From positions 130,589-147,321 of the IMG/VR virus record IMGVR_UViG_2974603165_000001: 16,733 nucleotides of DNA; one strand, 5' to 3'. Made by a program: the position numbers and the translations under genes. The first letter of the stretch is position 1; each line of letters opens with the position of its first letter. The DNA comes from a virus. Lineage: Duplodnaviria > Heunggongvirae > Uroviricota > Caudoviricetes. Shown here one piece after another: positions 1,515-13,244 of the stretch. The notes beneath the pieces were generated by a model that searched no databases, was not told the origin of the DNA, and saw nothing but the letters and a program-made list of their open reading frames with translations.

Positions 1515-1780
1515 TGGCCCTTCTCCTTATGGTTTTCATTGCCCACAATTGTAAACTGATAGGCCCGTAGAGGCAAGCCCTTTTCCTTAGCTGTACAGCT
1601 AAACCAGTGATTTTGCCTAAGAAACCCACCCTTAAATTTCCCCAGAAACCCACCCCCGCCCCCGCGTGGGGAATCTAAAGTGACGCCCCTGTTTGTATGG
1701 TCTCGTCGGAAAAATATCCAGACCCGAAGGGAGGTGTTTTGCCCTAAGCACACCGTCTGATCTGTTAGACGGACACTCAC
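1511..1780 (-). CDS. Doubtful ORF, 89 aa
   Basis: Overlaps the next gene by 4 nt, but has no clear RBS and its GGGGG stretch comes from a G-tract motif. Confidence 0.25.
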   Translation of the reverse strand: MSVRLTDQTVCLGQNTSLRVWIFFRRDHTNRGVTLDSPRGGGGGFLGKFKGGFLRQNHWFSCTAKEKGLPLRAYQFTIVGNENHKEKGQ

Positions 1781-3100
1781 ACCCCTCGGAAAAAGTCAAG
1801 GATCTTTTCAAAATATCTTAGCGGTCGGCCTGTCGAGACCCTTGCGAGTTCGAGACCTTTTTGATTTCGTTGCGAAACTATAACGGCAAATGATTACACA
1901 AATGATTGTTGCATAGTGTGATGATTAGCCAGCTATGAGCACGATTAGACCTTGACTTGAGATGTGTTGTGTGCATACCGCATTTAACATAATACACCTT
2001 ATACGCACTACACTACACACCGGGCAACCACTAACCATAGTGATGATTACATAGAGTGACTATCCACTGCATACACCATCAACACACTAACTATTCATCA
2101 GTGCAACAGTAAGCAGCGCTATAGTAACGCATAGTGACCATTACTGTCGGCTGTGGTGCAGATGAGAGTGATTATCATTACAGAATTGAAACCATTTGCG
2201 TTTTGATTCGCATTCTCAAAAAAGAAATATTCGACAAATGAAAATATTTTTCTTGACATAGGGAAAGAGTCGTGTTTAGCACATCATAACCTTGTGGGCC
2301 TGGCCTTCTGCGATAAGACCATGATTTACATCACATTAAGCCCTTACAGGGCTTGACACTTTAGGGATAATCTGCCCACGAAAAAGCCCTGATTATGACC
2401 GAAAACGGACGTTTTCAGGATGGATAGATAGACCTTTGTCAACCATTAATCACGATTTAACGTGATTTAATTTACATATTGACAAGCCTTTGACGTTATG
2501 ACACGCCACCTATAAAAGCAAGTAGCGATCACGAAAGTGATCGGCGTTATCGTGGCGTGATCATGATGATATCATTGCTACGTAGTAGCATAAACAGATA
2601 AGAAAAATTTATTGATTTATCACGTAAGTGATGATAAAGAGGCGTCACCGTAGCCACGATAACGCGAACGAAATCGAAACTTTGTTTTGATTGAGTTACT
2701 ACTTGCTTTTATAGGTGGCTCGCTACGCTCGCCACCTTCACCCCGATAACGCGAACAAGGGCGATCATTCTGCATTGTCATGATCATAGATCACGACGAA
2801 AAGCAACAGAAAAGAGACGAAAGGCGGGTTTTAGGTTGTGTTTTTAGTTTTATTCACTTTGTTGCATAATCATTCATCCTGAATGCGACACATTATCATC
2901 TTGCCCACAAAACCGGGTTTTTAGTGATTTTACGTGTTTTTCAGTTTGTCAATAGGTCTGAATTGAGCCTGTAAGCCTCTCTGAGCGTCTCGCCTGTTAA
3001 CGTGTACCCTACATCGTTTCCTTTGAGATCTCTTCATAGCGCGTTTTATTCAATTGGCTGCATAAAGAAAAGTTAACTATTGATTGACAGGCACAAAAAA
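1781..3100. other. 1.3 kb non-coding tract rich in inverted and short direct repeats
   Basis: No ORF in the six-frame track between 1780 and 3141; many palindromes read directly. Confidence 0.75.
2505..2719 (+). ncRNA. Candidate structured RNA or ssDNA fold (multi-branched)
   Basis: Perfect 21 bp IR (2505-2525/2699-2719) enclosing a 13 bp IR (2544-2556/2653-2665) and hairpins with GAAA (2526-2543) and GTAA (2619-2632) tetraloops. Confidence 0.45.
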
Positions 3101-3119
3101 GCCGGGAACGTGTCCCGGC
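3095..3119 (-). terminator. Intrinsic terminator ending the early island
   Basis: GCCGGGACACGTTCCCGGC hairpin then TTTTTT on the minus strand, 21 nt after the stop at 3141. Confidence 0.85.
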
Positions 3120-3140
3120 CTGGTGTTGTTGATTGTTGGA

Positions 3141-3404
3141 TTACATGATCAAGGAAGTGAGACCGCCCAGGACTGGCGGCAGATCATAACGGTTCAATTT
3201 GCCCACGGTTGACAGCTTCACCAGAACATAAAGCGCCAACTGTAAAGCGTCGATCACGTTATTGGTGATATTCACGTTATCAGCATCGAAAGCGAGACCG
3301 CCCACACCATTAAACACGGTATTGGTGATCATGCCCACAACGCAAGCCAGCAGGCAAGCGCCGATAAGGTTTGTTTTTGACAGCTTGTAAATTGTTGCTT
3401 TCAT
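3141..3404 (-). CDS. Hypothetical membrane protein, 87 aa
   Basis: Hydrophobic segments (LIGACLLACVVGMI, ALQLALYVLV); own promoter upstream and terminator downstream. Confidence 0.8.
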   Translation of the reverse strand: MKATIYKLSKTNLIGACLLACVVGMITNTVFNGVGGLAFDADNVNITNNVIDALQLALYVLVKLSTVGKLNRYDLPPVLGGLTSLIM

Positions 3405-3436
3405 TTCTTCTTACTCATAAAACCTATTGAGTGCTT

Positions 3437-3465
3437 ACAATAGCAAAAAGCGCCTGACAGTGCAA
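3437..3465 (-). promoter_or_regulatory. Sigma70-like promoter
   Basis: TTGCAC-17-TATTGT; the -35 lies in the loop of an AAGCGC/GCGCTT hairpin. Confidence 0.7.
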
Positions 3466-3494
3466 GCGCTTGTTTTTGGTTTAGTGCTTAAATC

Positions 3495-3737
3495 TTACAG
3501 CGTAAAATCTGGCCCTAACGCATCATTAAGCAGTGCCACCAGGGAACGATCATCCCAGTAAACGGGCTGGACTTCATAAAAACCGACTTCCAAGATCTGC
3601 ACCTTCATGACCTCATATTCAGCCGGGGTAATCTCAATACAGCCGCAAGCATGGCGGGCAATGTGTACGCCCTGCACACGTTCGAATGACACAGAAACCA
3701 CTTTAAAGCCTGCTTTCAAGATTTTGCGAGTTTGCAT
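3495..3737 (-). CDS. Hypothetical protein, 80 aa
   Basis: AAGGA RBS; sits behind a promoter/leader-hairpin cassette. Confidence 0.8.
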   Translation of the reverse strand: MQTRKILKAGFKVVSVSFERVQGVHIARHACGCIEITPAEYEVMKVQILEVGFYEVQPVYWDDRSLVALLNDALGPDFTL

Positions 3738-3757
3738 AGTGTTGATCCTTACGTTAG

Positions 3758-3816
3758 GCCGGGAACCGTTTCCCGTCCTGATGCAGATATATTAACAGAT
3801 CCTTTAATTGGTGCAA
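3758..3816 (-). promoter_or_regulatory. Promoter + 5' leader hairpin cassette
   Basis: TTGCAC-16-TAATAT, then ATCAG-GACGGGAAACGGTTCCCGGCC. Confidence 0.65.
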
Positions 3817-3849
3817 GCGATATCAAAGAATTTTTTACATTAGTTTTGT

Positions 3850-3935
3850 AAAGATTCGGTATTGAGAATCACTCGCATTACCAGAATGACAGGCTCCTCC
3901 GGTGGCTTTCCTCCGGTATCCATCGTTGCCGCTTC
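3850..3935 (-). ncRNA. Candidate small RNA unit A (alternatively a 27 aa ORF at 3840-3923)
   Basis: Follows the promoter at 3942-3970 with no long ORF; aligns by eye with 11797-11873 on the plus strand. Confidence 0.4.
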
Positions 3936-3941
3936 CAAAAC

Positions 3942-3970
3942 AGCATAACAAAAGCGAGACCTGATATCAA
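3942..3970 (-). promoter_or_regulatory. Sigma70-like promoter
   Basis: TTGATA-17-TATGCT; the -35 lies in the loop of a terminator-like hairpin (3954-3977). Confidence 0.65.
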
Positions 3971-3988
3971 GCCCCGCTCATGATTATT

Positions 3989-4198
3989 TTACTTCACAAT
4001 CTTATCATAATGATCGTAAAGCTCTTGTGCTCTGAGACAAGGCCAGGCGGTATCCTCAAAATGTACCCGGTGATCGATTGGCCTTGCATCTTTCAGGCCG
4101 TGAATGTGGAAAAATGATTCATGATCAATCTGTACAGCTTCCAGGATCAAAACGTTGTGTTGATCAATCTCTTTCTTTCTGATGGTGATAGTTGTCAT
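3989..4198 (-). CDS. Hypothetical protein, 69 aa
   Basis: GAGG RBS; directly follows the upstream gene. Confidence 0.8.
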   Translation of the reverse strand: MTTITIRKKEIDQHNVLILEAVQIDHESFFHIHGLKDARPIDHRVHFEDTAWPCLRAQELYDHYDKIVK

Positions 4199-4208
4199 GA
4201 TTTCAGCC

Positions 4209-4583
4209 TCAATAAAAGTCGATGTTTTCAGGGTTTAAGAATTCAAAGTTACGGCTGATCGGTGCGCCAGTCTCACCGCTTCCCCACTGGTTAAGGTTGT
4301 ATTCTGCTGTACGGCGGATCGCTAACCCTTTTTCAATCTTGCTTTCCGCTTCCTGCTGTTTACCGTCTAAGAAGGCATGAAAACGATCACGGGTTGCGCC
4401 GCTTTCAAGTTCCCAGGCTTGCAACTCTTCACGCTCTGACATAACGAACATAAGATCACGAAAACCCTGTTTCGCCATATCCTGGCCCGTGCCAAACATT
4501 GAATGATGATAATCAAAGGTGACGTGAAAAGGCTTGACTTTCGGCAATTTTGCATCTTTCGGTAACGGTTTGGCTGTGATCAT
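4209..4583 (-). CDS. Hypothetical protein, 124 aa (start MITAKP)
   Basis: GAGGGG RBS before ATG 4583. The longer ORF start at 4706 lies inside the -35 of its promoter. Confidence 0.75.
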   Translation of the reverse strand: MITAKPLPKDAKLPKVKPFHVTFDYHHSMFGTGQDMAKQGFRDLMFVMSEREELQAWELESGATRDRFHAFLDGKQQEAESKIEKGLAIRRTAEYNLNQWGSGETGAPISRNFEFLNPENIDFY

Positions 4584-4676
4584 GATTGACCCCTCAAAAG
4601 TTTTAACTGCTATAGCAGGTAAAAACGTTTTACCTGTTATAACGTGTAAGCAGAAACGATAACGCCCTACGCAATA

Positions 4677-4706
4677 AAGATAGCATAGAGCGGTTTTAGA
4701 TTGCAA
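4677..4706 (-). promoter_or_regulatory. Sigma70-like promoter (extended -10)
   Basis: TTGCAA-18-TATCTT with TGn; shares TTGCAATCTAAAA with the promoter at 6074-6101. Confidence 0.6.
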
Positions 4707-4712
4707 GTGTTT

Positions 4713-5219
4713 TTAATGATTATCGACAATCGAATAATAGTAATCAGATCCGCACTCTGTGATCACCTTGTCCACAAGTTCACACATTTTGCGCAAAACG
4801 TAAACGCAATGGCTTTCGAACTCTGAGACAATATTGATGATTTCCAGTGTTGTCGATCCTTGTGGTATGATCAAACAATCCAACACGCCATAATGATCGA
4901 ACCAGGCAACGCATTTAGAGCACTGGAAAGGCTCCTCTTTGCTGTCATGGCAATGTAACCCGGCAGCGTGAAAGGCTCTTAGATTGGCGCATAGCTCGTT
5001 ATACGCTGTTTCCTCTGATTCTGCCCAGAATTCAATCCACTGCTGATCGAACAAGTGATCAAGCTCCTGATCATCGGGTGCGCCCTCCTCGAAAGGTGGC
5101 GCGTTTTCGTCCCAGACAGCTAATTGAAACAGTTTTAAGCCTTCACGCTGGGTTAATGTGTAACGCTCTGATGCAACGCCACGTTTTGAGATATCAACTA
5201 ACCGGATTTTGTGGATCAT
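4713..5219 (-). CDS. Hypothetical protein, 168 aa
   Basis: Fills the space between a hairpin repeat and the next promoter; AAGG RBS. Confidence 0.8.
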   Translation of the reverse strand: MIHKIRLVDISKRGVASERYTLTQREGLKLFQLAVWDENAPPFEEGAPDDQELDHLFDQQWIEFWAESEETAYNELCANLRAFHAAGLHCHDSKEEPFQCSKCVAWFDHYGVLDCLIIPQGSTTLEIINIVSEFESHCVYVLRKMCELVDKVITECGSDYYYSIVDNH

Positions 5220-5242
5220 GTTACCGCCTTATAAAAGAGTAT

Positions 5243-5261
5243 GCCGGGAACGTGTCCCGGC
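5243..5261. repeat. Intercistronic hairpin repeat
   Basis: GCCGGGAACGTGTCCCGGC, identical to 3101-3119 but without a U-tract. Confidence 0.85.
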
Positions 5262-5270
5262 GTTTTGTGG

Positions 5271-5639
5271 TTATTCAATGTAAAGCAATTCTGCATCAAT
5301 GTAAACATTTTTGCTTGCAAATGACTGTGAAAGCGATGTTAATTTATCGCCTCTTTCGCCTAAACCACGATCCCAGAATCCAGCGCCGTGACCGTTGCGA
5401 GTAAGCCAAAAATCATGCCCCGCGTTAGAAAAATCATAGCCCGATGGCAAGTTATCCAGCAGATCCCCGGCAGCGTCGATAAATTGGGCGCAATCGTAAG
5501 CGCTATTGATTTTCGCAGACTCTGAGAGATCAAAACTTTCCAGGCTTTCGAATTCTTCCCCGTTGTCATCAGTGGCGCTACTGCTCCACACCAGGCAAGT
5601 TAGGTAAGCATTAAGGAACGTTTCAAAGTTGGATTTCAT
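5271..5639 (-). CDS. Phage protein with AGHDFWLTRNGHGAGFWDR motif, 122 aa (start MKSNF)
   Basis: GAGG RBS before ATG 5639. I recall the motif as recurrent in phage early regions; function unknown to me. Confidence 0.8.
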   Translation of the reverse strand: MKSNFETFLNAYLTCLVWSSSATDDNGEEFESLESFDLSESAKINSAYDCAQFIDAAGDLLDNLPSGYDFSNAGHDFWLTRNGHGAGFWDRGLGERGDKLTSLSQSFASKNVYIDAELLYIE

Positions 5640-5683
5640 CGGGTTAACCTCGTTTTGTTGTGTGGCATTAGTGCCTGAAAGAG

Positions 5684-5712
5684 ATACTATCAAAAGCGCC
5701 TACAGCTTGCAA
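5684..5712 (-). promoter_or_regulatory. Sigma70-like promoter
   Basis: TTGCAA-17-TAGTAT; -35 in the loop of hairpin 5692-5720; near-copy of the 3446-3471 region. Confidence 0.75.
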
Positions 5713-5730
5713 GCGCCTTTACTAACACTC

Positions 5731-6024
5731 TTACATTTTGTCCGCTTTCAGCATATCGGAAACGTAATCTAACAGCTTGTTGAATTTCTGCTTTTCGTCG
5801 ATCCAGACTGGCAGATCTTCCAGCTTGCTAAACAGGTTTGAATAATAGCTTAATGTTTCATCATCATTCAGACGGTACATTACTAACGGTTCACACTCGT
5901 TTTCTAAATCCCAGACCCAGACCTGGCGCATATCGTCTGCATCGTGCAAGGTAACATCAAGCCCCCGGCGTTGTGCAAAACCTTTTACAACTTCTTTTAG
6001 TGAACCGTCTTTATTAATGATCAT
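5731..6024 (-). CDS. Hypothetical protein, 97 aa
   Basis: Behind a promoter/leader cassette; AAGGG RBS. Confidence 0.8.
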   Translation of the reverse strand: MIINKDGSLKEVVKGFAQRRGLDVTLHDADDMRQVWVWDLENECEPLVMYRLNDDETLSYYSNLFSKLEDLPVWIDEKQKFNKLLDYVSDMLKADKM

Positions 6025-6045
6025 GGTGTAACCCTTTCAAGTGGT

Positions 6046-6101
6046 GGCGGTAGGATTACCGCCGATGTGAGACATTCTATCAGAGTGATTTTAGATTGCA
6101 A
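6046..6101 (-). promoter_or_regulatory. Promoter + leader hairpin cassette
   Basis: TTGCAA-16-TAGAAT, then CACATC-GGCGGTA-ATCC-TACCGCC. Confidence 0.75.
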
Positions 6102-6354
6102 TAACTTTCGCACCAGTTAAAGAGCGGTAAAAGTGGAAATGCTGCATTGCTTTATGTTCTGTGAAGCGATAGACGCCAGAAGCAAAACCGCCGACTTTGC
6201 TTGCTTCCATTACCAGGTAAGAATCACCGCCTTTGTGCTCAACAGTGATGATCCTAAATTCGCTTTCAGCTTTTGCGATAATGCCACGGGCTGGCGCTGG
6301 TGGGGTGATTACAGCGGGTTTTTTGCAGAAAAGAGACTTTAAGAATTTAAACAT
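6091..6354 (-). CDS. Hypothetical protein, 87 aa
   Basis: GGAGG RBS; own cassette upstream. Confidence 0.8.
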   Translation of the reverse strand: MFKFLKSLFCKKPAVITPPAPARGIIAKAESEFRIITVEHKGGDSYLVMEASKVGGFASGVYRFTEHKAMQHFHFYRSLTGAKVIAI

Positions 6355-6373
6355 GTTTGTAACCTCCAGAAAA

Positions 6374-6430
6374 GGCGGCGCTATTGCCGCCCGATGTGGT
6401 TACTTTACGCCTTTAGGTTTTCGCCGTCAA
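6374..6430 (-). promoter_or_regulatory. Promoter + leader hairpin cassette
   Basis: TTGACG-17-TAAAGT, then AACCACATC-G-GGCGGC-AATAGC-GCCGCC-TTTT. Confidence 0.75.
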
Positions 6431-6740
6431 TAGGAAAAACATCATTAACGATAGAAATTAGAGCGCCGATCACTTGATCCTGGGTTAAGGCGCTGCTTTC
6501 GCCTTCTTGGATCTGCTTTCCGTTGCAATCCAGTGCATAAGAAATAAAGCTATCACGATAAACCGCGTTAACAGTCTGTTTAACCTCAGTGCGGATCACT
6601 ACTTCCAGGCGGCAAGTTTTGAACTTGTCCGCTTGATCGGTAAAAGTCAACAGCATTTTATCATCAAAAGAGCGGAATTCAACTTCAACACGATCCGCAA
6701 CATTACCAGACAGGAAAAAGAAATTTTTTGCATTAGCCAT
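6405..6740 (-). CDS. Hypothetical protein, 111 aa (start MANAKN)
   Basis: AAGGG RBS before ATG 6740; this start avoids overlap with the upstream small gene. Confidence 0.75.
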   Translation of the reverse strand: MANAKNFFFLSGNVADRVEVEFRSFDDKMLLTFTDQADKFKTCRLEVVIRTEVKQTVNAVYRDSFISYALDCNGKQIQEGESSALTQDQVIGALISIVNDVFPIDGENLKA

Positions 6741-6750
6741 GATATGACCC

Positions 6751-6873
6751 TTATTTAAATAAAGCGGCAAGCGCCAGGAATGAGAAGAAAACCAGGAGGA
6801 TCAAAGACATACGATCCGCCTCTTTGTATGCTTCATTTTCGGTAGAATACTCAACTACATAAGGCTTTTTCAT
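6751..6873 (-). CDS. Small membrane protein, 40 aa (MKKPYVVE…LILLVFFSFLALAALFK)
   Basis: GGAGG RBS before ATG 6873; hydrophobic C-terminus. The longer ORF would run through the promoter cassette. Confidence 0.7.
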   Translation of the reverse strand: MKKPYVVEYSTENEAYKEADRMSLILLVFFSFLALAALFK

Positions 6874-6896
6874 CTTGTGACCCTCCAGGTTAGCAA

Positions 6897-6954
6897 CCGG
6901 GAACCATTTCCCGGCTGATGTGGTATTATTGATCGGTTTGGGTTGCCGTGTCAA
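6897..6954 (-). promoter_or_regulatory. Promoter + leader hairpin cassette
   Basis: TTGACA-18-AATAAT, then CCACATCAGCCGGGAAATGGTTCCCGG (27 bp identical to 9053-9079). Confidence 0.8.
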
Positions 6955-7292
6955 TCATTAGTTTGTGGGATTTTGTCGATACTCTCAAAAAAGTTATCGT
7001 CCGCATCCTGCACGTTTTGCAGGTATACCGCCCCGGCGTTATCCGGTGCGCCAACATCCGAACCAGGCAAAACACGATAGCAACCAGCAAAAGTAAACTT
7101 GTTAGGATCTTTCGGATCATTGGTAACATCATCAGGATAGAGGCGATCCAACATTGCCACACAATCGGCCTGATCTTTTGCATAGCTGGCGCTGGTGGAT
7201 GTCCAGTATTGCTCATAAGATGATTTACAATCATCAGCGTTGTTAGGCTGTACGGTGCAAAGGAAAGAAGCCAGTACGATAGATGCGATCAT
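6951..7292 (-). CDS. Putative exported protein with 4 Cys, 113 aa (start MIASIVLASFLC)
   Basis: Hydrophobic N-terminus and four cysteines; start is 5 nt after the stop of the 33 aa gene. Confidence 0.7.
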   Translation of the reverse strand: MIASIVLASFLCTVQPNNADDCKSSYEQYWTSTSASYAKDQADCVAMLDRLYPDDVTNDPKDPNKFTFAGCYRVLPGSDVGAPDNAGAVYLQNVQDADDNFFESIDKIPQTND

Positions 7293-7296
7293 GATA

Positions 7297-7398
7297 TCAA
7301 CCCCACAAAACAGCAGCAGTAACAACAAGACCAATGATCGCCAGTACGATAGCAACCGACCCGATTAACAACCATTTCGCAATTTTGTACTCATTCAT
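7297..7398 (-). CDS. Small single-pass membrane peptide, 33 aa (MNEYKIAKWLLIGSVAIVLAIIGLVVTAAVLWG)
   Basis: Hand-translated and not in the ORF track; GAGG RBS; first gene behind the promoter at 7458-7487. Confidence 0.75.
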   Translation of the reverse strand: MNEYKIAKWLLIGSVAIVLAIIGLVVTAAVLWG

Positions 7399-7457
7399 GA
7401 TTTAGAACCTCTAACAGTGGTGGCATGATTGCCGCGTTTCTCTTAATCAGTGCGCCC

Positions 7458-7487
7458 ATTGTAAGGGCTGCACTTGTTAAGAGTCAA
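7458..7487 (-). promoter_or_regulatory. Sigma70-like promoter embedded in a 44 bp imperfect palindrome
   Basis: TTGACT-18-TACAAT; IR 7440-7483 is centred on the -10. Confidence 0.75.
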
Positions 7488-7500
7488 CAACTTTCGAAAA

Positions 7501-7719
7501 TTATTTTTGAATCACGATAGCTGGCGTTTTGTCGCCTTCTTTAAGGCCGGGTTTTAGTTCATCGCAGTTGCCTAACTGCTCACCCTTGCGGAGTTCATAC
7601 GATTGATCGTAAACCTCGCAAGCCTCCATTGTTTCGAATTGCTTACGGACTAACCAGGAACAATCCAATTTAATGGACGTAAAAGAAATGTGACACGCTA
7701 ACACTAAGTAACCGATCAT
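7501..7719 (-). CDS. Putative exported protein with 4 Cys, 72 aa
   Basis: GAGGA RBS; MIGYLVLAC N-terminus; Cys spacing similar to the 6951-7292 product. Confidence 0.75.
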   Translation of the reverse strand: MIGYLVLACHISFTSIKLDCSWLVRKQFETMEACEVYDQSYELRKGEQLGNCDELKPGLKEGDKTPAIVIQK

Positions 7720-7763
7720 GCTTTTATCCTCTGATATGGGGCGTTGGTTGCCCTGTGTGAGTC

Positions 7764-7791
7764 ATACTATCAGATCCGTTTGTGGTGTCAA
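7764..7791 (-). promoter_or_regulatory. Sigma70-like promoter
   Basis: TTGACA-16-TAGTAT, GATC in the spacer, short GGGC/GCCC leader hairpin. Confidence 0.7.
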
Positions 7792-7803
7792 TACCCATAA
7801 AAG

Positions 7804-7832
7804 AAAAAACCGGGTTTTTTAGTTCCCGGTTT
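7804..7832 (-). terminator. Intrinsic terminator (CCGGG/CCCGG hairpin family)
   Basis: AAACCGGG…CCCGGTTT followed by TTT on the minus strand. Confidence 0.7.
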
Positions 7833-7865
7833 CTAACGTCCTGTAATCAATTTTAAGCCCTTTTA

Positions 7866-8093
7866 CTACTCTAAGTAGGCTGATGCCGCCTGGTGATGCA
7901 AAACGCGCTTACGTTCTGTTAGGCGCTTTAAATTGGCGGGATCATAGTTGCCCCCGTTCCAATCATCAGTAAAGCGGATCGGTTTGTGGCGTTTGTTGTT
8001 GCGCTGGCGGCGCTCGTTAACTTCACCATGCTGTAAGCGGGTGCGGGTACGGTTTGCACTCATTTTCTGGGTTGTTGCGTTTGTGTATGTCAT
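7866..8093 (-). CDS. Basic hypothetical protein, 75 aa (start MTYTN)
   Basis: GAGG RBS before ATG 8093; Arg/Lys-rich. Confidence 0.7.
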   Translation of the reverse strand: MTYTNATTQKMSANRTRTRLQHGEVNERRQRNNKRHKPIRFTDDWNGGNYDPANLKRLTERKRVLHHQAASAYLE

Positions 8094-8121
8094 GGCGTTA
8101 GCCCTCATAGTTGGTTGTTTA

Positions 8122-8454
8122 TCAGTTGTTGTAAGTCTGTCCGCGCCAGTCTGCGATCTCATCGGCGCGGGTATTAATATAAGCCTGCACAAAATCGCGT
8201 GTCCCTTGGATATGAATATCCACTTTACCGCCCCGGCTCTTTACTTCCATTGCTAACCCGGTGCCCTCTAAATCATTTAAAGGCCCGGATCGGCGGGTGT
8301 GATACTTGTTCCCGCGATAGCTATACTCTATATAATGAAACATCGTCTTAATCCTGTACATATGCCAGGCGCTTTGCGTCAGGCGGTAAACCCTTGCGGG
8401 GATCTTGAAAGCGATCACACCGCAAGCAATAAAGATGATCCCCGTTGCCGTCAC
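8122..8454 (-). CDS. Hypothetical protein, up to 110 aa
   Basis: GTG start just after the upstream stop; the true start could instead be the internal MFHYIEY. Confidence 0.65.
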   Translation of the reverse strand: MTATGIIFIACGVIAFKIPARVYRLTQSAWHMYRIKTMFHYIEYSYRGNKYHTRRSGPLNDLEGTGLAMEVKSRGGKVDIHIQGTRDFVQAYINTRADEIADWRGQTYNN

Positions 8455-8456
8455 TA

Positions 8457-9029
8457 TTAGTAATCCTCTAACAGTTCGTTTAATTTCTCACGTTCATCAG
8501 CAGTAAAGAAGCTGTTAAACTCGTTGCCGATCTTCTGGCAAGCCAGATAAAGATCTAAACCTTTGCGGCTATCCTCATCATAATCTAAGTTAGCGCAAAA
8601 ATCAGCATGGGTCTCATTACCTAATGACGCATCAGAAATCAGGCTATACAGTACACCAGCAGCGCCCGGAGTGATAGCGAAAACTTTTGCCCAGCCGCCA
8701 GCGTTCAACTTATTAGACAGTTTACGATCATCGTTTGTCCAATCTTCCTGGCCCAGATTAACAGCCATCAGGCCCAGCTTTTTCATTTCGCGGACATCTT
8801 GAGGAGTCAAGCCATTTTTACGCACAATACGATGACCAGTGCCAGTGGTGTAATCAGTGGTGATCCGTGCGCCGTTGTTGCTACGGCTTAAAACGATGTG
8901 GAATTGGTCGCCCTTCCAGTCTTTATCTTTACGCATACCAACGCTTACAGCTTTAAAATTAACGTTGATTGATTTCAGGAATTCAGCTACAGCCAGATCG
9001 GTTTCGTTTACAGTGATTGCGTTGTTCAT
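8457..9029 (-). CDS. Hypothetical protein, 190 aa
   Basis: Long ORF behind a full cassette; AAAGG RBS. Confidence 0.85.
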   Translation of the reverse strand: MNNAITVNETDLAVAEFLKSINVNFKAVSVGMRKDKDWKGDQFHIVLSRSNNGARITTDYTTGTGHRIVRKNGLTPQDVREMKKLGLMAVNLGQEDWTNDDRKLSNKLNAGGWAKVFAITPGAAGVLYSLISDASLGNETHADFCANLDYDEDSRKGLDLYLACQKIGNEFNSFFTADEREKLNELLEDY

Positions 9030-9052
9030 TTTTGTGACCTTTTCAGTTTTAA

Positions 9053-9110
9053 CCGGGAACCATTTCCCGGCTGATGTGGTTATTATGGGTTAATGCGTTT
9101 ACTGCGTCAA
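9053..9110 (-). promoter_or_regulatory. Promoter + leader hairpin cassette
   Basis: TTGACG-17-CATAAT, then CCACATCAGCCGGGAAATGGTTCCCGG. Confidence 0.85.
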
Positions 9111-9118
9111 GCGATTTT

Positions 9119-9547
9119 TTAGCCTTTCAGGTAATTATTTTTTACCTGGTAAACGTGGCGATAACGTACATAACCGTTATTAATACCACGATAAACAGAT
9201 TTTGTTTCGTCTGTCATTGAAACGTAAGCCAGATCGTAACCGATTTTTTCCAGCCAGTAAAGCGCGGCGCTTTGGCCTTCATTGTGGGATTGTTCCCGGC
9301 GATAAGGCGAGGTTAAAACCTCAATAGATCCAACGTCAGAATATTTATTCTGGACAGTTGGCAGATCGTCACAATGCAGGCTTGCCCGGTATTTGTTGAT
9401 CGTGTTGCCGTTGACATCGCGGCCAAAATCGAAAGCCTCTACCACAACAAAAAATTCTTTGCCCAGTGTACGGCCTTTGGCCTTTGCGCTGGTTTCCAGT
9501 TGGCGGACTGCATCAGCCAGGTTGATAGATGTTTTAAACTTTGCCAT
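9119..9547 (-). CDS. Hypothetical protein, 142 aa
   Basis: Behind a cassette; AAAGG RBS. Confidence 0.85.
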   Translation of the reverse strand: MAKFKTSINLADAVRQLETSAKAKGRTLGKEFFVVVEAFDFGRDVNGNTINKYRASLHCDDLPTVQNKYSDVGSIEVLTSPYRREQSHNEGQSAALYWLEKIGYDLAYVSMTDETKSVYRGINNGYVRYRHVYQVKNNYLKG

Positions 9548-9568
9548 GATGTTAACCTTTAATGTTAT

Positions 9569-9624
9569 GCCGGGAACCGCCCCGGCTTGATAAATAATGT
9601 AATCGATCTAAAACTTGATTGCAA
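9569..9624 (-). promoter_or_regulatory. Promoter + leader hairpin cassette
   Basis: TTGCAA-17-TACATT, then ATCAAGCCGGGGCGGTTCCCGGC. Confidence 0.7.
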
Positions 9625-9632
9625 CAACTATT

Positions 9633-9971
9633 TTAAACGATTTCTAATTTTCTGATGCGCCATGAATGCACTGTGATTTTAGACAGCATAGTGTTAGCCT
9701 CTTCATAAGTCAACGGGCTGGCATTCATGATCACTTTTTCTTTTGTTTTCTTGTTGATCACAACAACGTTAAACATCAAAGCGATGTAATCAGGGTTTAA
9801 AGTGCGGCGCTCAATGATCCGGGCGCTAACGCCGTTATCCAGGTAATCTTTTTTCGTTGCCCGTGCATCCTTCCAGGACAATTCCGCGCAAGAATCTTCC
9901 CAGCCGCTGCAAGTCATTTCTTGCACGATGATTTCATTTACCCATTTGTTAACGCGTTTTGCCTTTACCAT
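9633..9971 (-). CDS. Hypothetical protein, 112 aa
   Basis: GAGG RBS; own promoter. Confidence 0.8.
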   Translation of the reverse strand: MVKAKRVNKWVNEIIVQEMTCSGWEDSCAELSWKDARATKKDYLDNGVSARIIERRTLNPDYIALMFNVVVINKKTKEKVIMNASPLTYEEANTMLSKITVHSWRIRKLEIV

Positions 9972-10006
9972 GATAAACCTCTAAATTGTTGTGTTTTGTT
10001 GTGGGG

Positions 10007-10036
10007 ATTATGCGCCAGTTGCCTGGCGCTTGTCAA
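10007..10036 (-). promoter_or_regulatory. Sigma70-like promoter with a palindrome filling the spacer
   Basis: TTGACA-18-CATAAT; GCGCCAG-GCAA-CTGGCGC at 10012-10029. Confidence 0.8.
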
Positions 10037-10282
10037 TCAATAAACGGTAATTTTTTCGCCTTTCACAATCACATAAGTGTGACCGGAATTAGAATAGATA
10101 TCAACATAAACGCGGCGCATACGTCCGGCAAGGTTGATCATTTTTGTTGTGGGGATCTTAGTGCCGTACCCGGTGCGGGTTTTCTGTAAGCCCCGGCGCT
10201 GCCAATCCAACGGGCGATAATGCAGCGCCACGAAATCAGACGCGTAATCAGGATGTGAGATCATTACCATTTCTTGAGACAT
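10037..10282 (-). CDS. Hypothetical protein, 81 aa
   Basis: AAGGGG RBS; own promoter. Confidence 0.8.
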   Translation of the reverse strand: MSQEMVMISHPDYASDFVALHYRPLDWQRRGLQKTRTGYGTKIPTTKMINLAGRMRRVYVDIYSNSGHTYVIVKGEKITVY

Positions 10283-10306
10283 TTTAAACCCCTTGTGTTT
10301 TGTTTC

Positions 10307-10358
10307 GCCAGTTGTTTGGCTTGATAAAGATTCTACCTAAGAGCCTGCACCGTTGCAA
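10307..10358 (-). promoter_or_regulatory. Promoter + short leader hairpin
   Basis: TTGCAA-17-TAGAAT, then ATCAA-GCCA-AACAAC-TGGC; -35 in the loop of hairpin 10337-10366. Confidence 0.75.
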
Positions 10359-10385
10359 GCCCTTAGAGAAAATAAATCTCAACTT

Positions 10386-10775
10386 TTACGCCGCCACAAG
10401 GTCACGCGACTTGCACCAGGTTACCGGAATTTTATTTCCCTGATGACCGATTACCATTGTTTGACGCTTGCGGCGTCCTGGAAAACGCTTTCCATTTGGG
10501 TGACGCACTGACAGCGGGGCGCGGTCAATTTTAAGCGCTGGCGCTGGCAGTGGTGCGGCTGGAACGGTTGAAACCTCAACTTTAAGCGCGTTGTTTTTCT
10601 GCCAGTCCGCATGGGCGTTGGCTGTTTCATTAAAAGCAGCCTGCACACAATCGGGAACCTCAATAGCCCAGCGTTTACCCGGTGCGGCATCTTTGCCGTT
10701 GTCAATAGTTTTAACGCCTGCTGCTTTTGCTGCTTCACGGGCCAGGGTACGATTAGCGAAGAATTGAATATTCAT
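10386..10775 (-). CDS. Hypothetical early protein, 129 aa (start MNIQFFANRTLAREAA)
   Basis: Start lies just downstream of the leader hairpin; Ala/Pro-rich linker and basic C-terminus. Confidence 0.8.
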   Translation of the reverse strand: MNIQFFANRTLAREAAKAAGVKTIDNGKDAAPGKRWAIEVPDCVQAAFNETANAHADWQKNNALKVEVSTVPAAPLPAPALKIDRAPLSVRHPNGKRFPGRRKRQTMVIGHQGNKIPVTWCKSRDLVAA

Positions 10776-10796
10776 AATAATCTCTCTCTGAGTTAA

Positions 10797-10856
10797 CCGG
10801 GGAACCATTCCCCGGCTGATGTGGCTATTATTGATCGAAAGGTTTTAGCGAGTCAA
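10797..10856 (-). promoter_or_regulatory. Promoter + leader hairpin cassette
   Basis: TTGACT-18-AATAAT, then CCACATCAGCCGGGGAATGGTTCCCCGG, which has a compensatory G-C pair relative to the other copies. Confidence 0.8.
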
Positions 10857-10868
10857 CAACTTTTAAAG

Positions 10869-11402
10869 TTATTTTGCAAGATTCTTTAAAGCGTCCATCT
10901 TTCCTACGATTTCAGCGGCGGCGGCTTTCGCTAATGTGATCGCCTCCTCTAAGATTCCGTGCTCTTCATAGATGCTCTGAGCGGATTCTAACACTGTTTC
11001 ATCATCATGATAGGAATGATCCCAGCCACACCCGATCACGACATCATCTAAGAGATCAACGCCGTCGATACTTGCGGAGACTGTCAAGCCGTAATCAGTC
11101 GCATCGAGATCACGATCAAAGGCGTTTAACGCATCTTGATAAGCCTGGGCGCTTGCCTCATTAGGGGACATACCGCCTTTAATCAGGTTTTCCAGGCGCT
11201 CGGCAAGGCTGTAATTTAACGGTATGCCGTATTTGTAAGAGTTGCGATCCGCGTTGCGGTTTTTGACAGTGACGCCGCCCTGATGCTTATCAGTCAATTC
11301 CCACTGATCGCCTAAGCCGTCGTTTGTCTCATAGTTAACCACTGAGAAAACAAAGTTAATGCCTTGTGCTTCTACGTTGAAAGTTTCGCTTACGTGTGAC
11401 AT
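10869..11402 (-). CDS. Acidic hypothetical protein, 177 aa (start MSHVSE)
   Basis: GAGG RBS before ATG 11402; the longer ORF runs through the promoter. Confidence 0.8.
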   Translation of the reverse strand: MSHVSETFNVEAQGINFVFSVVNYETNDGLGDQWELTDKHQGGVTVKNRNADRNSYKYGIPLNYSLAERLENLIKGGMSPNEASAQAYQDALNAFDRDLDATDYGLTVSASIDGVDLLDDVVIGCGWDHSYHDDETVLESAQSIYEEHGILEEAITLAKAAAAEIVGKMDALKNLAK

Positions 11403-11427
11403 ATAATTAAACCTCAGTTTTGATTGT

Positions 11428-11486
11428 GGTCGGCGGTGTGCCGTCCTGATGTGATACATAGTAGGGATTAAAGATCCTGGCGTCAA
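11428..11486 (-). promoter_or_regulatory. Promoter + leader hairpin cassette (first of the island)
   Basis: TTGACG-17-TACTAT, then CACATCA-GGACGGC-ACACC-GCCGACC; A/T-rich UP-like tract upstream. Confidence 0.8.
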
Positions 11487-11610
11487 TACCTGAAAGCAAA
11501 ATAATTTAAAAATCTTTTTGGTAAAAAATGATTGCATTCACCTGGTGACCTATGCTATTCACGCGCACACATTAAGTAAAGGAGGGATGAAAAAGAATTG
11601 TTGAAAGTGG

Positions 11611-11796: not shown

Positions 11797-11875
11797 CATG
11801 GCGCAGGGTAACGGATAGCGCGAGACAAACACCGAGCCTGCCCGTCATTCCGTAAATGAGAATGATTCTCATTCA
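11797..11875 (+). ncRNA. Candidate small RNA unit B
   Basis: Follows the promoter at 11763-11791; similar to 3861-3935 (minus). Confidence 0.4.
11855..11873. promoter_or_regulatory. Fur-box-like perfect 9-1-9 palindrome
   Basis: AATGAGAAT-G-ATTCTCATT; two mismatches to the 7-1-7 consensus TGATAATnATTATCA. Confidence 0.55.
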
Positions 11876-11929
11876 ACCTAAAAATTTAGGTGGACGTGTG
11901 AAAATTTTTGTGTCATAATTACATACCCC

Positions 11930-12141
11930 AAAAAATTTTTTTCGCAATAGATCCGAAAATTCCATTTTTGAAAACGGCAAACCCCTCAAGTCCCCGCCGC
12001 GAAAAAATTTTTTCGAGCGAGTTCTGGAAAATCCATTTTCGATTTTGAAAAACCTCTCAAGTACCTGCTGTACCGAGAAAAATTTTTTACTATAGAGTTT
12101 GAAAATCCATTTTGGAAAATGAAAATCCTTTCGAGTCCCTG
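11930..12141. repeat. Three degenerate ~72-76 bp tandem units
   Basis: Units start at 11930, 12002 and 12078. Each has A5-6T6-7 … GAAAAT(T)CCATTTT … CC.(C/T)TC(A/G)AGT.CC. Confidence 0.7.
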
Positions 12142-12407
12142 AATCCCTGGAGAGTTTTGAGATAAGTTACTGGCACATATGGACATAATAGCGACCAAGG
12201 TTGGTTGTTTTATACTGTATAATCATGGACTTATGAGGGGTCTTTTGAGATGTTGATTCCCAGCCATTTGAGATAGCAGCCCCAACGTTATGGGGGCGTG
12301 AGCCACTACACCAGGTAAAACCATTTTGAAAACCATTTCGATTTCCATTTTGAATCTGAGGCCCAAATATCCACAAAATATCTGGGGTCAAATATCTGAA
12401 ACCATTT

Positions 12408-13244
12408 TCATTTCAGTTTGGATTTCAAAAGGTTATGCCACGCCAAAATATCCCATACCTTGTCTGTTGACATGGTGTACACTGCAAGCTCTGCCCTGGT
12501 AGGGTTGGTGTAGTCATCGAAGATGCTCATCAAATCCTGGATTTTGTGAGTCGTCACATGGACTGTACCTTCGGCTGACTCCTTGATCAGGATTGTCCCG
12601 TTAGTGGATACAGAGATAGCGAATCCACCGACAAACATATCAAGATCTGAACCACCGTCGAAGATCAACCAACCATCTACACTCATTGTGAGATCGCTTG
12701 GTGATGTGGATAAGCCAGAATCTACCGTCATAAAAGGGTTGTAGTCTACACCTAACAATGTTCGCAGGTATCCGCGTGAGGTATCTGACCATCCAAACTG
12801 CAACAAGACATCATGCAGCCGCTGAGATGACGTGGTGAAAATGTCGTCACACTCAGACCTGGCTTGAAGCAGTATTTCCTTGATCTTATCAATGGATGGT
12901 GGTGATTGCCCATCAAACTCATCCAAGGCTTGGTCTATTGACCTGGTAACCGACAAGGCAGCATAAGTCATGTCTGCGACCATATTATCTTTCAGTTCAT
13001 TCTGGGCGGTGAAGTCTTTCAGTTCGTTTGGAACATCAGATAAGAGATCGCTTACAAGACTCTTAGCAGAATCAAGTCTGCTTTCAGTTGTAGAGTCATC
13101 TGTGTCTACCCTGTCCAATTCCCACATGATATCCTTCACTTTGTCCTTCATAAACCCTTCCATGTCAGGGAGGTCGTGAAGGGTCTCACGGTGCCTATAA
13201 TCCCAGTGTGGGCTTCTTACTCCGTGCAAGTCATAATTCTGCAT
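12408..13244 (-). CDS. Acidic hypothetical protein, 278 aa
   Basis: Long ORF, AGGAG RBS, Asp/Ser-rich; no family recognised. Confidence 0.8.
   Translation of the reverse strand: MQNYDLHGVRSPHWDYRHRETLHDLPDMEGFMKDKVKDIMWELDRVDTDDSTTESRLDSAKSLVSDLLSDVPNELKDFTAQNELKDNMVADMTYAALSVTRSIDQALDEFDGQSPPSIDKIKEILLQARSECDDIFTTSSQRLHDVLLQFGWSDTSRGYLRTLLGVDYNPFMTVDSGLSTSPSDLTMSVDGWLIFDGGSDLDMFVGGFAISVSTNGTILIKESAEGTVHVTTHKIQDLMSIFDDYTNPTRAELAVYTMSTDKVWDILAWHNLLKSKLK

Follow-up and report, generated by a model that had tools for sequence, protein, structure and literature searches.

A conserved branched inverted repeat beside the terminal repeat of Vequintavirinae phages, a candidate folded-DNA signal for terminal-repeat processing

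What is a non-coding, 215-nt inverted repeat, closed by a perfect 21-bp stem, doing near one end of a large myovirus genome? It lies in a window of 16,733 nt (the whole stretch of DNA analysed here, positions 130,589 to 147,321 of IMG/VR record IMGVR_UViG_2974603165_000001) that shares ~80% identity with Erwinia phage Hena1 (genus Henunavirus, subfamily Vequintavirinae); the phage belongs to Vequintavirinae and is Henunavirus-like. A preliminary description had read the locus either as a structured or switchable RNA or as a single-stranded DNA (ssDNA) or cruciform signal, and had named the injection-stop signal (iss) of phage T5 as a possible analogue. The features needed to decide among such readings are, in window coordinates:

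1768-2276, no strand: predicted short direct terminal repeat, ~510 bp, projected from Hena1
1982-2009, no strand: dif-like XerD/XerC site inside the terminal repeat, 20/22 arm bases matching E. coli dif
2505-2525, plus: P1 5' arm, perfect 21-bp closing stem
2526-2543, plus: P2 hairpin, loop cGAAAg (cGATAg, cGTTAg or cGACAg in homologues)
2544-2556, plus: P3 5' arm, near-invariant in Henuna-, Seuna- and Mydovirus
2557-2652, plus: P3 interior, variable and tolerant of insertions, with small hairpins cGTAg (2576-2590) and cGTAAg (2619-2632)
2653-2665, plus: P3 3' arm
2667-2697, plus: P4 arm, with AAC/GTT base, tandem G.A pairs (2670-2671 with 2693-2694) and compensated stem
2699-2719, plus: P1 3' arm, its final base pairing with G2505; predicted (inferred) fold-back primer terminus
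2718-2732, minus: mini-hairpin with C-GTA-G triloop and tandem G.A pairs, directly abutting P1
2744-2756, plus: direct repeat of the P3 3' arm/P4 entry (2657-2669)

The exact reverse complementarity of 2505-2525 and 2699-2719, the hairpins at 2526-2543, 2576-2590 and 2619-2632 and the 13-bp stem 2544-2556/2653-2665 are all present as first described, and together with an overlooked fourth arm (2667-2697) they form a four-way junction of helices P1, P2, P3 and P4; the minus-strand mini-hairpin (2718-2732) had likewise been missed. Other details needed adjustment: the GTGA/TCAC extension of P3 exists but is not contiguous with it, pairing instead across a 4-nt bulge (2649-2652); the 13-nt direct repeat does have two copies, the second at 2744-2756 rather than 2745-2757; and GCCACC is found at 2731-2736, but the competing pairing proposed for it is limited to Henunavirus. 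The fold is non-random and real. In RNA parameters it reaches -102.5 kcal/mol, with z-scores (a check suggested at the outset) of -10.0 for the plus strand and -8.3 for the minus strand, in DNA parameters the z-scores of the two strands are -8.9 and -9.1, and 0 of 200 shuffles folded as stably. Across the 147,321-bp genome no perfect inverted repeat whose arms are separated by <600 nt is longer than P1; the runner-up is the element's own 13-bp inner stem, and the element occurs as a single copy. Near-identical phage contigs span the region in two independent sequencing runs, so the element is not an assembly artefact. A 55-codon ORF (2620-2787, minus) was rejected as a gene, having no PHROG match; ORFs annotated there by depositors are absent or inconsistent.

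Retention of the pairing in homologues had been proposed as a further check, and the pairing proved to be kept, with compensating changes, in 35 distinct Vequintavirinae-type elements of 105-291 nt. BLAST recovered the element core in Seuna- and Mydoviruses, and with the dif-like site as anchor the same architecture was found in Certrevirus, Vequintavirus, Avunavirus, A73 and one unclassified contig; all the large relatives of this Erwinia-type phage that were examined retain the branched hairpin. Pairs were counted by script, because MAFFT misaligns the P1 of Henunavirus with that of other genera. Among 19 distinct versions of P1, 341 of the 342 pairs are Watson-Crick and the other is G.T; for the 13 alignable versions the figure is 207 of 208 (shuffles averaged 137 and reached at most 156), and 19 extra pair types are seen. 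Three things stay constant: P1 is perfect, its 3' arm is preceded by a GTTAC-like junction, and a small hairpin follows P1 immediately. The downstream direct repeat of an internal segment keeps its architecture in five genera. On these sequence comparisons the element is conserved through compensating changes in Vequintavirinae. The phi92-like group (phi92, Schickermooser and two Klebsiella phages) has an analogous fold, likewise branched, whose 15-16 bp stem is compensated and abutted by a hairpin; these elements lack the cGNAg triloop. Pattern matches in about six non-phage-looking metagenome contigs (L021-L023, L025, L027, L029 and L030 among them) showed no fold and were set aside as chance.

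Additional copies of the P1 5' arm and inserted hairpin modules were seen in several related loci (L003:1391, L005:1390, L007 upstream of P1, L036 inside the element and L068:731-801), with insertions in P4 of the Mydoviruses and SalP219 as well. These extra arms and inserted modules suggest a local hot spot of rearrangement.

The spacing between element and terminal repeat is also kept. The window's terminal repeat is a projection of Hena1's annotated 519-bp repeat, and measured to its inner edge P1 starts 229 bp away; the corresponding distances are 261 bp in Hena1, 200 bp in EdH4 (459-bp repeat) and about 310 bp in KPP-1, using its published repeat at 116,316-116,829 (PMC9862379). The repeat ends were determined independently in Hena1, EdH4 and KPP-1. 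For the analogous folds of Schickermooser and phi92 the distances are 209 bp and 252 bp, giving a range of 200-310 bp across six genomes (the window by projection). Taking both groups together, the closing stem is perfect over 15-21 bp. The element stands at one genome end only, with no gene between it and the end, and in the window and in EdH4 the far side of the repeat has no comparable inverted repeat. Deposit orientation is mixed, with repeat and element at the right end in Hena1 and phi92 and at the left end in EdH4. On its inner side the element flanks a promoter-rich island of small genes, of which the minus-strand block at 3141-11537 points toward it.

The dif-like site is the other conspicuous landmark here: it is unique in the genome and keeps 20-22 of its 22 arm bases in the Vequintavirinae loci examined, 404-704 bp from P1. 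It is absent from the phi92-like ends examined, where the analogous fold is nonetheless present, and thus the element tracks the terminal repeat and not dif. Seurat shows the converse, with a dif-like site (19/22 arm bases) and no such inverted repeat. No phage integrase domain was found in the genome, and KOPS motifs are nearly absent here. The dif-like site is probably not part of the element's mechanism. The ends of PaP1 also have no such inverted repeat.

Several further observations were made. The right end of PaP1 (L064) and its small-gene region carry several perfect cGNAg hairpins that lack a long stem. Just outside the other side of the window's repeat is an endonuclease gene (PHROG 681, HNH-like; 316-1290, minus); phiTE has an HNH gene at the equivalent place beside its repeat, and Hena1 has none there. 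Fur-box-like palindromes occur within the repeat (2164-2182) and at the island's far end (11852-11876), as well as at L033:3860-3882. A GC-rich hairpin cassette is repeated between island genes (3101, 3759, 5243, 6896, 9052 and 10797), and the island's far boundary (11930-12430) has A/T-tract repeats spaced by 71-74 bp. All seven Chi octamers of the whole genome are on the strand that is plus in the window and none on the minus, three of them in minus-strand gene regions; this bias would shield from RecBCD only the end opposite the element.

Whether such a conserved fold acts as RNA or as DNA can be asked of its pairs and loops. G.T accounts for 1 of 342 pairs in P1, compared with G.U for 42 of 531 pairs in this genome's tRNA stems (Fisher p 1.6e-8, an overstated value since related sequences were counted as independent). 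Template-switch correction also yields perfect arms, whatever their function. Both tetraloops had been described as GNRA on the plus strand, but as an argument for RNA this fails in the homologues, whose P2 loops (GATA, GTTA or GACA in place of GAAA, each closed by C-G) fit the DNA motif d(cGNNAg) and not GNRA. According to PMC3201870, GNA triloops closed by C-G have a special stability in DNA; that paper also cites cGNNAg and cGNABg as motifs. Loops of the DNA types cGNAg, cGNYAg and cGNABg were found in 18 of 118 element strand-hairpins; the whole genome gives 16 of 1530, and the terminator-like hairpins 1 of 57. UNCG loops number 0 of the 118 vs. 7 of the 57. The sequences compared are related, so that p-values from these counts are inflated. 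The small hairpin after P1 is present in all 35 Vequintavirinae-type elements; among the 31 collected without using it (four more were found by a pattern requiring it and were left out of the count), 30 have C-GNA-G on the minus strand, the exception being Hena1 with C-ATA-G. Its stem shows compensatory changes, including one in Avunavirus, and in Henuna-, Seuna-, Mydo- and Avunavirus contains a tandem G.A that cannot form on the plus strand.

Signs of transcription were also sought. A sigma70 scan revealed no conserved promoter upstream or downstream of the element, no plus-strand terminator was found, and against the Rfam covariance models neither the window nor any of five homologous loci had a match with E up to 1. 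TTGACA-N14-TG sites that lack a usable -10 hexamer flank the element (window 2353 and 2479; L003, L004, L006 and others), recurring in Seuna- and Mydoviruses ~130 nt before P1 and ~50 nt after it. A phage-specific TTGACA-N12 promoter was considered and dropped, there being no genome-wide excess at that spacing. Covariation across the subfamily supports a functional fold, and of the two alternatives in the preliminary description the ssDNA or cruciform branch is the better supported; the pair and loop statistics lean toward folded DNA over RNA. The element is most likely, judging from its sequence and position, a folded-DNA signal for terminal-repeat processing.

Which strand would fold? The tandem G.A pairs of P4 can form on the plus strand only, and they, the T.G at the base of P3 and the G.T pairs of P1 and P4 are all plus-strand or both-strand features. 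Where P1, P3 and the regular P4 stems depart from Watson-Crick pairing, the plus strand shows G.T and not A.C, and 11 of the 12 DNA-type loops outside the mini-hairpin class are plus-strand or shared. We infer that the folding strand is the plus strand of the window, whose 5'-to-3' direction leads from the repeat into the element.

In phages with short exact repeats, neighbouring genomes in a concatemer share one repeat, which must be copied. We tentatively favour, at close to even credence, a reading of the element as a cis-acting ssDNA fold-back for this processing, by analogy with the M-hairpin of phage T7. The plus strand of the concatemer would be nicked just 3' of P1, at 2719 or with trimming back to it, and the mini-hairpin, which abuts the predicted nick on the opposite strand, would together with the invariant junction form the nick recognition site. 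The nicked strand would then fold back, its 3' end paired at G2505 and pointing through the repeat, and the phage's family-A polymerase would extend this end leftwards through 2276-1768, yielding the second repeat copy needed by the neighbouring genome; the hairpin would be trimmed off at packaging. The near-absence of non-Watson-Crick pairs from P1 would be expected, because P1 would form the primer-template junction for a proofreading polymerase. Coding sequences for a family-A polymerase, a protein with an endonuclease VII domain and a Terminase_6N terminase are present in the genome. Three features are not accounted for by the fold-back model: the branching of the interior, the repeat downstream, and a location next to the small-gene island instead of the late genes.

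The T7 precedent is a palindrome that we located in the T7 sequence: its centre is at 39,588, the repeat is 190 bp away, and the strand that leads from the repeat into it has a GCA triloop. A hairpin end has been demonstrated for T7, and Chung, Nardone and Hinkle reportedly proposed in 1990 that a nick at the M-palindrome leads to a hairpin end from which synthesis is primed across the repeat. To our knowledge, fold-back duplication of a terminal repeat is known only from T7. Both systems have a single non-coding inverted repeat ~200 bp from a short direct repeat, on one side of it; in both, the strand running from repeat to palindrome folds better, so that a fold-back points at the repeat; and both phages combine a family-A polymerase with short exact repeats. 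There is, however, no sequence similarity, and T7 has a simple imperfect hairpin of ~40 nt, whereas the fold here is branched, 105-291 nt in size, with a perfect stem and an opposite-strand mini-hairpin. The M-hairpin lies at the late-gene, packaging-first end and the present element beside a small-gene island, and the hairpin end that is known for T7 is here a prediction. The M-hairpin adjoins T7 gene 19.5, and its deletion is cited as giving concatemer-processing defects (PMC2680503). The element may thus work like the T7 M-hairpin, but as an analogue and not a homologue.

Much the same evidence would be expected of another ssDNA or cruciform cis signal, namely a replication origin, a site of single-strand initiation (primase or primosome loading) or a terminase loading site, none of which involves fold-back priming. 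Single-strand origins and N4-type extruded hairpins typically show branched hairpins carrying GNA loops. All of the DNA-type loop and pair evidence fits such a signal equally well, and the conserved direct repeat downstream might offer a further site for a protein; the likeness to single-strand origins and N4-type hairpins extends to DNA-stable loop motifs (PMC3201870) and the branched fold, with the difference that the present element sits beside the terminal repeat of a linear dsDNA myovirus. Such a signal would leave unexplained both the fixed spacing of 200-310 bp from one repeat in two subfamilies and the choice of a strand compatible with fold-back, and against an origin in particular, DnaA boxes are lacking and base skew merely follows gene orientation (also PMC3606486), so we regard this explanation as somewhat unlikely. 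A structured non-coding RNA from the plus strand, with the downstream repeat as a switch, draws on a four-way junction with covariation, as seen in Rfam RNAs, on the tandem G.A and the few plus-strand G.U-type pairs, on the variable inserts, tolerated as in many RNAs, and on RNA parameters favouring the plus strand in 33 of 34 elements (partly a composition effect); a phage-specific promoter is possible, as is a putative switch through the direct repeat. The RNA reading is nevertheless unlikely in view of the missing sigma70 promoter, terminator and Rfam match (six genomes), a P1 poor in G.U, loops of the GNYA and GNA types instead of GNRA or UNCG, a best-conserved mini-hairpin that forms on the opposite strand only, and loop and pair statistics that differ from those of RNA hairpins of the same phages.

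The comparison with T5 iss is attractive in that both are non-coding, lie close to an end of the genome and combine inverted with direct repeats (10.1101/866236), here beside a small, pre-early-like gene block, but it breaks down on arrangement. The T5 stop is at 9.1-10.1 kb, behind pre-early genes in a 10-kb repeat, whereas the repeat here is ~0.5 kb and no gene precedes the element, so that a pause would deliver no genes. T5 has DnaA boxes and A1/A2; for the present phage, tblastn gave no match to A1, A2 or dmp at E 0.1 (very distant homologues could escape), 1768-3140 contains 0 DnaA boxes vs. 4 near-matches in T5 iss, and the element has no meaningful DNA similarity to iss. The analogy, part of the preliminary description, is hardly credible on these grounds. 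Very improbable, too, is that the element serves as a XerCD accessory site for the dif-like site or is a functionless palindrome kept by template switching. Proximity to dif in Vequintavirinae would suit the former, yet the dif spacing varies by 300 bp and the phi92-like phages have the fold and no dif; the duplicated P1 arms and inserted modules would suit the latter as marks of frequent local rearrangement, yet the invariant junction bases and compensated tandem G.A need selection.

We found no description of the element in a literature search (mostly of freely readable papers); for rV5 merely a 'non-coding' box has been described (PMC3606486). The element is real, conserved and uncharacterised, and is neither T5 iss nor a known RNA family. 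With a little less confidence than we attach to the fold-back reading of the element itself, we propose that the rV5-like and phi92-like subfamilies may copy their terminal repeats by means of a dedicated fold-back primer of branched ssDNA, which would be read via a mini-hairpin on the opposite strand. The regeneration of short direct repeats in phages is an old and only partly solved question studied mostly in T7, and if the proposal is true, a mechanism otherwise restricted to T7 would generalise, in more elaborate form, to unrelated large myoviruses. The element offers a precise test in tractable coliphages (rV5, Bas54 and phi92), since the strand is specified, a hairpin junction is predicted where P1 begins to pair at its base, and compensatory pairs are available; for Bas54 a saturated insertion library exists from HIDEN-SEQ (PMC13716836). 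It is also a conserved non-coding site that gene-level screens of therapy-relevant phages have not reported, and it illustrates that counts of loops and wobble pairs can tell folded DNA from folded RNA in phage genomes.
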